This document shows positions 3,221 to 13,491 of a DNA stretch of 64,000 nucleotides, in pieces (within the stretch, counting starts at the first letter, position 1; the number at the start of each line of letters is the position of its first letter). A program made the position numbers and the translations under genes. The stretch covers positions 96,001 to 160,000 of IMG/VR virus record IMGVR_UViG_3300044712_002690. One strand, given 5' to 3'. The notes below the pieces were generated by a model, which saw only the letters and a program-made list of their open reading frames with translations, was not told where the DNA came from and did not search any database. Origin of the DNA: a virus.

Positions 3221-3604
3221 TTAGTGTCTAAGTAAATTGATAATATTGTTTGTTCTTCTTTCGATTCTTTCTTTTTCTTCATTCTGTAGATCCTCATATG
3301 AAGTTAAAGGTATATTTTCTAATTCATCTACATCTTCTTTACGAATAACTATAGCACCATTATTACCTTTTTGATATTTAGTAAGGAATGCTATGATCCA
3401 TTCTTTATATTGTAGTTCTAATTGAATTTTAATTTCAGATTCTTTTTCTGATGTAAGAGAAACAATAGAGGCAGGAGGAAGTGAGGAAATTCCGACTAGC
3501 TCAATATATTGAGAGCTGTATTTATCTTTTTTGAGAGCGTTGTTCATTTCATCGTCTACGCATGATAAAAGTAAGAGAATAAGTAAGATAGATAATCTAT
3601 ACAT
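3221..3604 (-). CDS. Putative lipoprotein
   Basis: Hydrophobic signal ending LLLLSC (lipobox-like). Confidence 0.45.
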   Translation of the reverse strand: MYRLSILLILLLLSCVDDEMNNALKKDKYSSQYIELVGISSLPPASIVSLTSEKESEIKIQLELQYKEWIIAFLTKYQKGNNGAIVIRKEDVDELENIPLTSYEDLQNEEKERIERRTNNIINLLRH

Positions 3605-3660: not shown

Positions 3661-3687
3661 AAAAGCCCTAAGAAATCTTAGGGCTTT
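3661..3687 (-). terminator. Intrinsic terminator
   Basis: Inverted repeat AAAGCCCTAAG/CTTAGGGCTTT followed by a T-run on the minus strand, just after the YkuK-like gene. Confidence 0.8.
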
Positions 3688-8330: not shown

Positions 8331-8391
8331 TTTCGTTTATTACTTTCCTTATCACTTTCCTTCATAAGGAAACCTCCTTTAAATTAAAATG

Positions 8392-8467
8392 TGTTCCTGA
8401 AGGGACTCGAACCCCTAACCTTCTGATCCGTAATCAGAAACTCTAAATCCAATTGAGCTACAGGAAC
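8392..8467 (-). tRNA. tRNA-Arg(ACG)
   Basis: TCTGA-TTACGGA-TCAGA. Confidence 0.95.
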
Positions 8468-10153: not shown

Positions 10154-11767
10154 TTAAATGCCCCCTTTAGCAAATTCAGAAATGATTGATGGTGCCGCTG
10201 AATCGAAGCCGCAAACATCAAGCATTCCAGGGTCTTTAGGATCTGCAATTGTAAATTGAGTTCCTACCATACCTACAACAGCTAATTTAGCATCTTTCAC
10301 ATGAGCGTTTCTATACTTTTTGAGTGCTTGGCTTGGTGCAATTCTTCCGGCCCAAGTCTCATTATCAGTATAGATTGTAAAAATATCAAAGTCTAATTTT
10401 TCTCTAAGAGCCCATTCCATCGGCAATGCACAATCTGTTCCTTCGAATGGAAGACCTGAAATTTTTCTAATAGTTTCATTCAATGACATTCTAGGAGTAA
10501 TGTCAAGGTGCATGAATCTACTAGAGAATCCCATAATCTCATAGTTCTTTTCTGTACGAGCAGTTACCATTGCCATACAAGCAGATGCTTCACGGCAAGT
10601 AACAATACCATACGCTCCAGAAATATAAGCTCCTCCCATTGAACCAGATACGTCAAGTGCAAGTAAGAATCTTTTATCTGTTGGTTCAATATTCTTGAAA
10701 CTAAGATAAAAAGCTTCTTCAAGTGCATCACGTACTTTACCAACAGGCTTCCAAGTAAGACTACCTTTGATTCCATGACCCATTGAATATGTTTTTAATG
10801 CAATGAGAATATTCAATGGATGCAGTCTACTTTTAGAAATATAATCCTGATTAGTTAATTTTCCAACCACACGTTCAATTTCATTAAACTTACCAGGACC
10901 AATTACTCCGATTGCAGTAAGTCTGTTAAGACTTCTCATTAATGCTGTAAGTGGAATATCATCAAGAGCTTCTGTCCAAATACTAACATTATTCTTCAGT
11001 TCAGTAGGCCAAGCATCTTGAGGAATTTTGTATTCCTTAATAAGCTTTTTAGCTTTTGCTACATCAGCTGTTTTAAGTTCATCGAAAGCATTAATAAGTT
11101 TCAATGCTTCTGATTTTTCTCCTTTAACAGCATACTTAAAAAGCTCATTATGAGCATCGGACACTGGTTTTACGTGTGCAGAACGAAGAACATCTCGATG
11201 TGTCCACTGATTTCCTGTTCCTTCAACAGTACGTCCTTGATATTTAACTAGTTGATATTCAAGTTTAGAAGGTTCCATTGCATACCAATTAGAAATAGCT
11301 TTACGTACTGACCTTCCCCAACTTCTCATTGTATCTACATAGTGAGTAAACATGAAAAGATGAGTACCTGTACGACAAATCTTAGGCATAGCCTTTGAGA
11401 TTTCAGTTTTGAAAGAACTATCTTTACAATTAGTAATAAGAGCTGCTAAAAGGAAAATAGCTTGATCATTTTTAGCTGCTCTACCTGAATCAGAAATTTC
11501 TACAATAGTTTCAAGTACACGTTTAGGGTCTTCATCTATACAAGCTAAGCAATTTGAGATGTTTAGCTTAGTAAGATCATTTTGAGTGACATAGTATGTT
11601 CCGCCTTCAGACCCAAGCACAAGGAAGCGTTGGAGCATCTTCCACTTATCTAGTACGAATGTGTACCCACCTGCATTATTCTTTGCCATTTCCTTTTCAC
11701 GACCAGGAATAGGCTGAGATTGAGGTGTTTGTTTAGAATCTTGAAAAGAACTGTAATTGACAGCCAT
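10154..11767 (-). CDS. rsr: Ro60/TROVE-domain RNA-binding protein with vWA domain
   Basis: NNAGGY, LQRFLVLGSEGGTYY, RTGTHLFMF, KYQGR, HPLNIL, and MIDAS DVSGSM, TDCALPM, YTDNETW. Start at ATG 11767 after GAAGGAGG. Confidence 0.95.
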   Translation of the reverse strand: MAVNYSSFQDSKQTPQSQPIPGREKEMAKNNAGGYTFVLDKWKMLQRFLVLGSEGGTYYVTQNDLTKLNISNCLACIDEDPKRVLETIVEISDSGRAAKNDQAIFLLAALITNCKDSSFKTEISKAMPKICRTGTHLFMFTHYVDTMRSWGRSVRKAISNWYAMEPSKLEYQLVKYQGRTVEGTGNQWTHRDVLRSAHVKPVSDAHNELFKYAVKGEKSEALKLINAFDELKTADVAKAKKLIKEYKIPQDAWPTELKNNVSIWTEALDDIPLTALMRSLNRLTAIGVIGPGKFNEIERVVGKLTNQDYISKSRLHPLNILIALKTYSMGHGIKGSLTWKPVGKVRDALEEAFYLSFKNIEPTDKRFLLALDVSGSMGGAYISGAYGIVTCREASACMAMVTARTEKNYEIMGFSSRFMHLDITPRMSLNETIRKISGLPFEGTDCALPMEWALREKLDFDIFTIYTDNETWAGRIAPSQALKKYRNAHVKDAKLAVVGMVGTQFTIADPKDPGMLDVCGFDSAAPSIISEFAKGGI

Positions 11768-11790
11768 TTTGCTGCCTCCTTCATATAAGA

Positions 11791-11852
11791 TTAGGTCAAG
11801 TAGTTGGAATAGGGGAAACATTCTGAAGTTAACCTACCCCATCCGTACCTAA
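11791..11852 (-). ncRNA. Y RNA-like hairpin (unit 4), directly upstream of the Ro60 RBS
   Basis: TAGGTACGGA ... CTTGACCTA bulged helix resembling the Ro-binding site; inner stem TGGGGTAGG/CCTATTCCA. Confidence 0.75.
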
Positions 11853-11859
11853 AACCTTT

Positions 11860-11986
11860 AGGAACAAGGCAGGATTTGAACCTGCGACCAGCCCATTATA
11901 AGTGGTAACCTTTTCTCTTCCGTACCTTTCAGTCAATAGTTTGAAAAAAGGGTTTTAGCTGCTCTACCGCTGAGCTACTTGTTCCT
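11860..11986 (-). ncRNA. tRNA-like Y RNA, YrlA type (unit 3)
   Basis: Acceptor, D (TAGCTCAGCGGTAGAGC) and T (GCAGG-TTCAAAT-CCTGC) arms. The anticodon arm is replaced by a long stem ending TTGACT-GAAA-GGTACGG. Confidence 0.85.
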
Positions 11987-11987
11987 T

Positions 11988-12115
11988 GTCCTAAGGGGAG
12001 GACTTGAACCTCCGACCCGTAGTGTGACCTGTTAACCTTAACCTGCCGTACCTTTCGGTCAAATAATCGGAAAAGGTATTTTAACTACTGCTCTACCAAC
12101 TGAGCTACCTTAGGA
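11988..12115 (-). ncRNA. tRNA-like Y RNA, YrlA type (unit 2)
   Basis: Acceptor TCCTAAGG/CCTTAGGA with D and T arms; long central stem ending TTGACC-GAAA-GGTACGG. Confidence 0.85.
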
Positions 12116-12679: not shown

Positions 12680-12757
12680 ATAAAGCCTACTCTTTGTTTA
12701 TAGTGGCTGTTGGCAGCGTAATTCCACTACACGATTTAAAGCTAGTGCGTACTCATT

Positions 12758-12843
12758 TGGATGGGGAGGGATTCGAACCCCCAACGCTCAATCGAGTCCA
12801 GATTTACAGTCTGGTAGTGTCCACCAGTCTCACAAGCCCATCC
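12758..12843 (-). tRNA. tRNA-Tyr(GUA)
   Basis: CCAGA-CTGTAAA-TCTGG; long V arm; A73. Confidence 0.88.
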
Positions 12844-12904
12844 ATTTTCGTTAGGTTAATATATAAATTTTATATATTAACCTGTTTTCAAATATCGTAA
12901 TATC

Positions 12905-12936
12905 AATATATAAACAAGTAAAGAAAAAACTAACTA
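12905..12936 (-). promoter_or_regulatory. Phage promoter-like motif TAGTTAG-N19-TATATT
   Basis: At the head of the tRNA array, just downstream of the terminator. Confidence 0.6.
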
Positions 12937-12941
12937 GCAAT

Positions 12942-12974
12942 AAAAAAGCATGAGATTTGTTTCTCATGCTTTTT
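12942..12974 (-). terminator. Intrinsic terminator (putative attenuator 3:4 hairpin)
   Basis: AAAAAGCATGAGA-AACAAA-TCTCATGCTTTTTT. Confidence 0.85.
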
Positions 12975-13000
12975 CTTCCCATATACTTTGAATGAAGAAA

Positions 13001-13108
13001 TCACATGAGATAGACTCCGCGTTCCTTGGCTTGATATAAAGAACTAGGATCTATTGCTACTGTGAGCGATAGTGAATTAAACATATGATTTCTGGTCCTT
13101 TGCGTCAT
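13001..13108 (-). CDS. Putative 35-aa leaderless leader peptide (MTQRTRNHMFNSLSLTVAIDPSSLYQAKERGVYLM)
   Basis: ATG lies 6 nt after a -10 box; the stop codon is 26 nt before the terminator; its sequence forms alternative hairpins. Confidence 0.6.
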   Translation of the reverse strand: MTQRTRNHMFNSLSLTVAIDPSSLYQAKERGVYLM

Positions 13109-13114
13109 GTTTAT

Positions 13115-13143
13115 AACTTATATATCATATGGGATTTTGTCAA
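13115..13143 (-). promoter_or_regulatory. Sigma70-type promoter
   Basis: TTGACA-17 nt-TAAGTT; predicted +1 coincides with ATG 13108. Confidence 0.65.
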
Positions 13144-13491
13144 GACTTTTTTCTTTTAAATAAAGAAATATTAAAATTTTTTTTCATAATCCACAATATC
13201 TTCCATTGTTCCTAACACTTTGTTTATAACTGGATAAAATATAATATCATCAATTGTTTTAAGAAGGATGAGCAATTCACTTTTTTCATTGCATAGCTTT
13301 GTAAGTCCAGTTTCTGGACTGTGAGCTACGTACATTATTGGTTATCTTTTCCACAATCAATTTTTTCATTTGTAACCGGAACCATAATTGTGAATTGCTT
13401 TGTTCTGCCACACTGTACAAAAGGACCTTCTGTTCCTTTATGGACTGGACATTCCTTACAACTTCGTAAATCAATTTCCATTTTTACACCT

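Follow-up and report, generated by a model that had tools for sequence, protein, structure and literature searches.

The window analysed here, a 64,000-nt stretch of a 179-kb IMG/VR virus record with a G+C content of 32%, carries nearly all of its genes on the minus strand. The element described below separates two blocks of that strand: on its 5' side lie tail or structural genes, and downstream of it lie 22 tRNA genes, together with tRNA-like and YrlA-like modules and a Ro60 gene (positions 10154-11821; TROVE domain, 1e-36; vWA_Ro60 domain, 1e-65) that follows the tRNA array and the Y-RNA-like modules. The first gene of the array is tRNA-Tyr (12757-12844, minus strand). Shine-Dalgarno sequences of the window's genes are mostly of the AGGAG or AAGGA type. 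The phage has no close cultured relative: neither blastn with the region nor tblastn with a tail-module protein matched a cultured phage, and the proteins neighbouring the element have no relatives in IMG/VR. Just upstream of Ro60, Rfam gives a weak match to YrlA (11926-12045; 23 bits, E = 0.12) and a 126-nt 'tRNA' with a large insertion (11989-12114, within 11861-12114 on the minus strand), both of which fit tRNA-like Y RNA modules. A strong terminator at the far end of the tRNA island (3662-3687, minus strand), with an 11-bp stem containing 5 G-C pairs followed by a U-tract, is the only other strong minus-strand terminator between positions 3500 and 13000, which suggests that one long transcription unit lies behind the element.

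We took as relatives the contigs with the nearest Ro60 proteins (58-68% identity) and found a homologous unit in two distinct uncultured phages, at L002:13088-13336 and L045:10408-10647; the L002 unit is identical in L003, L028 and L049, and the L045 unit is identical in L053. In all three phages the unit occupies the same position, at the head of the tRNA array and immediately before tRNA-Tyr, and does not adjoin Ro60. A nhmmer search with the window copy alone did not reach L002, so homology rests on position, on architecture and order, and on short identical blocks; beyond the promoter and antiterminator motifs given below, these blocks are ACAGTAGCAWTAGA, CATGTRA and the terminator core GCATGRGA. 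When viral, metagenome and genome contigs were scanned for exact patterns, no further lineage emerged, all matches being copies of the L002 and L045 types or chance matches; a search with the protein adjoining the L002 element returned only its own contig; no second copy of the unit was found in the window's own genome; and the unit is absent from the other Ro60 phages L004, L046, L054, L055 and L056. Three other large phages with close Ro60 homologs have a tmRNA gene 1-1.2 kb downstream of Ro60 (L004:10770-11116, L005:3300-3643, L046:12671-13009), and L046 also has a tRNA with the anticodon CTA, of the amber-reading type, at 8358-8430. The spacer between tRNA-His and tRNA-Tyr in L055 (2385-2741) contains no attenuator and holds tRNA-like modules with the Y-RNA-like motifs GGTACGG and TTGACC, and a protein of 113 aa encoded in the tRNA island of L054 (4983-5324) contains an RF-1 domain (PF00472) and is of the peptidyl-tRNA hydrolase / ArfB type.

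The unit opens with a candidate promoter. The original prediction had placed a TTGACA-17-TAAGTT motif here, and the motif is present on the minus strand, with the −35 hexamer TTGACA at 13138-13143, followed by AAA, and the −10 hexamer TAAGTT at 13115-13120 after a 17-nt spacer. The −35 block TTGACAAAA is identical in the window, L002 and L045, and at equal spacing the three copies carry TAAGTT (window) and TAGTTT and TATAGT (relatives), giving the pattern TAnnnT. The distance from −35 element to ATG is 35 nt in all three copies, in which the 17-nt spacer is followed by TAnnnT, 6 nt and ATGA, within a stretch otherwise only 66% identical between L002 and L045. In the window the ATG (13108-13106) begins at the seventh base after the −10 hexamer, and this geometry would put the transcription start at the leader ATG. 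The window −10 element is weak, matching TATAAT at 3 of 6 positions, and for that reason the promoter does not appear in our consensus-scan list; since, moreover, the region has no more promoter-like sites than shuffled sequence (54 found vs. 58 expected), the promoter taken by itself is a motif match only. A start codon at +1 accompanies just 1 of the 43 promoter-like sites of the genome. A second promoter motif, previously proposed at 12905-12936 as a possible bypass, proved no better than background, the consensus scan of that strand listing nothing from 12850 to 12940.

Two further observations concern sequences around promoters. An A/T block resembling AAAATTTTAATATTTC follows the upstream gene's stop codon in all three phages and lies upstream of the promoter (13160-13180, minus strand, in the window; L002:13035-13060), where it may be an UP-like or other regulatory element. 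Separately, a 64-codon ORF beginning MTEEQIQREIRL is conserved in seven unrelated IMG/VR contigs (L006, L012, L013, L020, L030, L034 and L035) and starts exactly 7 nt after a TTGACAAAA-N14-TAGGTT promoter motif (TAGTTT in L013); the MTEEQIQREIRL ORFs look like a family of leaderless phage genes.

At the predicted +1 of the window unit begins, as had been claimed, an open reading frame of 35 codons (13001-13108, minus strand), with TGA at 13003-13001 as its stop codon. All three copies keep the frame open, with 35 codons in the window and 45 in each relative, and in each copy it ends with AUG and a stop codon at the same structural position; the lineages differ by 10 codons, which indicates that the frame has been kept across indels. 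Shuffling leaves the frame open in 14% of cases for the window copy and in 4.8% for L002, and the other two frames contain 1-7 stops. Between L002 and L045 the nucleotide differences fall on codon positions 1, 2 and 3 in the numbers 5, 6 and 12, a comparison that lacks statistical power as a test of frame maintenance (p about 0.3). The part of the claim that called this frame leaderless fared less well: promoter geometry does place the ATG at +1, but the leaderless start is uncertain because in every copy an internal AUG, preceded by a good Shine-Dalgarno sequence, also lies in frame. In the window this alternative start (13082-13100, minus strand) consists of AAGGA at 13099-13095 and, at a distance of 11 nt, the AUG of codon 9 (13084-13082); in the relatives it is an in-frame Met25, with a stronger Shine-Dalgarno sequence. 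The corresponding pairing energies are −5.5 kcal/mol for codon 9 of the window, which equals the median of real genes there, −10.1 kcal/mol for L002 and −8.8 kcal/mol for L045, vs. −1.2 ± 2.5 kcal/mol for internal ATGs.

The window leader is rich in rare codons, and its codon usage is atypical, with a CAI-like value of 0.41 vs. 0.73 ± 0.10 for phage genes, as a non-coding RNA would also show; codon usage cannot tell whether the rare codons are there by design or the frame is non-coding. No gene caller recorded the leader peptides, which are absent from the protein collection searched and match no family, and their mutual similarity may owe something to constraints of RNA structure, such as G-rich stem strands. 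The leader frame contains no run of codons for a sensed amino acid. A pan-amino-acid leader was considered and set aside: 18 of the 20 amino acids occur in the window frame, which is marginal (p about 0.05), and the relatives are not significant. From the nucleotide sequences, we judge that the leader frame is likely translated, from the 5'-terminal AUG, from the Shine-Dalgarno-led AUG, or from both.

Beyond the frame lies an intrinsic terminator (12942-12974, minus strand; −15.8 kcal/mol) with a 13-bp stem formed by arms 12974-12962 and 12955-12943, a 6-nt loop and a U-tract, the T-tract extending to 12942. Its left arm begins 26 nt past the TGA, the distance that had been given for it. A 43-codon ORF (12851-12982, minus strand) that starts just before the terminator, runs through it and encodes a hydrophobic stretch was rejected as spurious, the ORF being probably an artefact of T-rich sequence. 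The spacer from terminator to tRNA-Tyr is 98 nt in the window, and no convincing promoter was found in it. Inside this spacer is a perfect 12-bp palindrome (GGTTAATATATA ... TATATATTAACC; 12854-12882, minus strand). It is absent from L002 and L045 and is a candidate processing site, protein operator or second hairpin. In the relatives the terminator stands still closer to the array: in L045 its U-rich tail reaches the first base of tRNA-Tyr, and in L002 it stops about 15 nt short. This placement leaves no room for a separate promoter, makes tRNA-Tyr appear dependent on read-through, and renders a regulatory or deliberately leaky terminator far likelier than one that simply ends an operon.

The left arm of the terminator can pair instead with the end of the reading frame. 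The original prediction had noted that UCUCAUG could pair with CAUGAGA of the terminator; this pairing is present, and it is made stronger by a second helix that the first reading did not include, yielding a two-helix hairpin of −17.8 kcal/mol. The 5' strand of this antiterminator (12994-13010, minus strand) comprises UCUCAUG(U), the stop codon UGA as an internal loop, and UUUCUUC, and the 3' strand (12962-12978, minus strand) comprises GAAGAAA, AAG and CAUGAGA, which double as the terminator's A-tract and left arm. Helix 1 thus joins 13010-13004 to 12968-12962, and helix 2 joins 13000-12994 to 12978-12972. In a first test, which scored the energy gain in the full fold, the antiterminator was not significant (182 of 1000 shuffles); because that test was confounded by the competing P1, we replaced it with duplex tests. 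The duplex between the 17-nt left-arm region and the leader has an energy of −20.3 kcal/mol, equalled by 0 of 2000 shuffles, and when the antiterminator pairing is compared with shuffles copy by copy, 0, 4 and 32 of 2000 equal it. The fold of the whole leader has z = −4.0, with none of 200 shuffles equal to it. Antiterminator and terminator are nearly isoenergetic in each copy, at −17.8/−15.8, −20.5/−17.6 and −17.6/−19.8 kcal/mol.

The antiterminator has the same design in all three copies. Helix 1 consists of UCYCAUG(U) paired to (G)CAUGRGA, the stop codon (UGA, UAA and UAA) exactly makes up the 5' side of the internal loop, and helix 2 is formed by UUUCUUC/GAAGAAA, UUUACUUU/AAAGUAAA or AUUACUUU/AAGGUAAU. 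Compensatory changes are found in helix 1 (U-A to C-G), in helix 2 (U-A to A-U between L002 and L045, with wholly different strands in the window) and in the terminator stem (A-U to G-C). In a MAFFT alignment 95.5% of cells are paired, vs. 44-60% when the partners are slid, and 19 of 500 shuffles reach the observed percentage; two alignment pairs have changed on both sides, and the covariation statistics are modest because there are only three distinct copies in two lineages. Upstream of the antiterminator, the window has a conserved hairpin (13051-13072, minus strand) that includes the 14-nt block ACAGTAGCAWTAGA (13063-13050); in L002 and L045 this block lies on the 3' side of a longer hairpin. 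Identity between L002 and L045 reaches 95.5% over the 3' half of the leader, which folds as a long hairpin, vs. 77-86% for neighbouring genes, and all three substitutions between the two fit the fold.

The original prediction had described a full three-part logic (1:2, 2:3 and 3:4 pairing) in which region 1 of the early frame pairs with region 2 at its end. The 2:3 and 3:4 pairings are conserved with compensatory changes, as set out above. The 1:2 helix is present in the window, where region 1 (13092-13082, overlapped by the alternative start) and region 2 (13007-12997) form 11 bp with one U-G pair, but it is undetectable in L002 and L045: shuffles equal it in 20-22 of 2000 cases for the window and in 437 and 676 of 2000 for the relatives. 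Even in the window it does not dominate the fold at the decision point. We conclude that the 1:2 helix appears restricted to the window phage and that the conserved core of the unit is a two-state, not a three-state, switch. In the window phage the extra helix could serve to shut off untranslated transcripts, such as those arriving from the upstream operon.

To model the effect of a ribosome, each transcript was folded to just before the terminator right arm with the ribosome footprint masked. In this folding model the probability of the antiterminator is at least 0.94 when the RNA is free of ribosomes or the ribosome is still within the first three quarters of the frame, and falls to 0 once the ribosome P site is within roughly the last 5-6 codons. 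Modelled in this way, the position of the ribosome on the ORF would decide which hairpin forms, and the direction of the switch is that predicted by the model. At equilibrium, two of the three full-length RNAs favour the terminator regardless of where the ribosome stands, which implies that the decision must be kinetic, as in classical attenuators.

According to the reading that we favour, to which we assign a probability of roughly 60%, the unit is a ribosome-mediated transcription attenuator heading the tRNA / Y-RNA / Ro60 island. Transcription from the sigma-70-type promoter would yield an RNA of about 165 nt with a short reading frame, on which translation would begin at the AUG of the 5' end, at codon 9 with its Shine-Dalgarno sequence, or at both sites. 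In the antiterminator, the terminator left arm would supply the 3' strand, and the 5' strand would consist of the two final sense codons, the stop codon and the 7 nt that follow it. A ribosome at the end of the frame during synthesis of the terminator would cover the antiterminator 5' strand, so that the terminator forms and transcription stops; with slow, stalled or absent translation the antiterminator would form first, and polymerase would read through into tRNA-Tyr and the island. The outcome would be a negative feedback between translation capacity and phage tRNA supply, and on the folding model the phage probably makes more tRNA, Ro60 and Y RNAs when ribosomes translate slowly.

The strongest competing explanation, which we consider unlikely, accepts the switch as real and has it set by something other than the ribosome, the open frame being incidental; an RNA-binding protein of phage or host, a small molecule or RNA acting on the upstream hairpin, the speed of RNA polymerase, or the NTP level could each play this part. 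The best-conserved part of the unit is indeed the structured hairpin just upstream of the antiterminator, with its 95.5% identity between L002 and L045 and its fold-compatible substitutions, the frame has atypical codon usage, and the layout of P1, antiterminator and terminator in the window resembles the expression platform of an OFF riboswitch. Yet P1 is not conserved, and the retention, in two lineages, of a frame that reaches its stop within the antiterminator loop, together with a Shine-Dalgarno-led AUG in three of three copies, is unlikely by chance. Searches of the window and L002 against the Rfam cis-regulatory families (T-box, riboswitches, amino-acid leaders) gave no match at E values up to 10, the sub-threshold matches being driven by the terminator; a T-box or riboswitch reading was dropped on this absence of Rfam signal.

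We regard as improbable the explanation that the unit is a small gene or small RNA that stands alone, with its own promoter and a leaky terminator; constitutive partial read-through would then supply the tRNAs, and the alternative hairpin would have no regulatory role. A promoter, a transcript of roughly 165-205 nt and a terminator make a typical small-RNA layout, and released attenuator RNAs and leader peptides can act in trans elsewhere, as reported for rnTrpL (PMC6614838). Against this stands the terminator itself, which makes little sense without control when placed within 15 nt of a promoterless tRNA gene, and the antiterminator, which is kept through compensatory changes and shares exactly the terminator left arm; the peptides, moreover, have no family match and do not occur in the protein collection. 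Less probable again is a promoter-proximal terminator overcome by a processive antiterminator of the phage, a factor that would switch the island on as Q does at lambda PR'-tR'. At that locus a strong promoter gives a short terminated transcript, the 6S RNA, and downstream genes need read-through, which Q brings about as a protein that modifies RNA polymerase, with no RNA antiterminator and no translated frame. The phage unit likewise has a promoter that looks constitutive and a short transcript that ends at the terminator, and the genes downstream are promoterless and appear to depend on read-through. This is a resemblance of layout only, and an explanation of this type leaves the covarying RNA antiterminator, the conserved frame and the Shine-Dalgarno sequence unexplained. 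Finally, a chance juxtaposition of the upstream late operon's terminator with consensus-like motifs, on whose side stand the background frequency of promoter-like sites (54 vs. 58 expected) and the rarity of start codons at +1 (1 of 43), is very improbable, since the whole unit is conserved at the same position in two other phages and the shuffle tests of leader fold and duplexes argue against it.

Ribosome-mediated attenuation, the reading preferred here, has its classical form in the leader-peptide attenuators trpL, hisL, leuL, thrL and pheL, in which a short frame stands just after the promoter. In these amino-acid attenuators a ribosome at the stop codon covers region 2, so that the 3:4 terminator forms, and a lagging ribosome allows 2:3 pairing and read-through. 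The phage unit resembles attenuators of the trp type in the logic of the switch and in a similar distance from stop codon to terminator. Unlike them, it has no regulatory codon run, and its outputs are tRNAs, Y-RNA-like RNAs and Ro60, not biosynthetic enzymes. A further difference follows from the lack of conservation of the 1:2 pause and anti-antiterminator pairing: absence of translation should give read-through, not super-attenuation.

By analogy, the closest published cases appear to be two attenuators of general translation stress, the bmrB-bmrCD leader of Bacillus subtilis, which is translated, has alternative stem-loops and in which rare codons affect the decision (PMC4191407), and the whiB7 uORF attenuator of mycobacteria, likewise a translated leader with alternative stem-loops (PMC10274678). 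In both, a general slowing of translation, by antibiotics or by shortage of amino acids or tRNAs, leads to read-through (PMC4191407, PMC10274678). Rare codons are frequent in the window leader. The phage unit has no sequence similarity to either system; those two control a drug pump or a transcription factor, whereas the output of the phage unit would be a translation substrate itself, the tRNAs, closing a direct feedback loop. [quoted passage not shown] Unlike those ORFs, the phage unit has an intrinsic terminator as its switch and an internal Shine-Dalgarno-led AUG as well.

A more tentative proposal, possible but somewhat unlikely in our estimation, is that the unit is a phage sensor of translation failure, that is, an inducible 'sense-and-replace' counter-defence module. 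Anticodon nucleases, tRNA-degrading effectors of the retron or PARIS type, or other insults would slow the ribosomes on the mini-ORF and open the switch, and a near-complete set of replacement tRNAs would be transcribed along with Ro60 and Y-RNA-like RNAs. Full-text literature searches found no published case of tRNA genes under a leader-peptide attenuator. Phage tRNAs are reported to rescue infection from tRNA-targeting defences (PMC10264068, PMC11464382, PMC11555353). Bacterial-style attenuation is itself known; its use on phage tRNA genes, as these leaders suggest it, would be a new variant. If the attenuator reading is correct, the supply of tRNAs, and here also of the Ro60 / Y-RNA module, would be tied directly to the speed of decoding, the leader would constitute a compact natural sensor of translation capacity, and translation stress would be linked, in a way open to testing, to RNA-quality-control genes of viruses.
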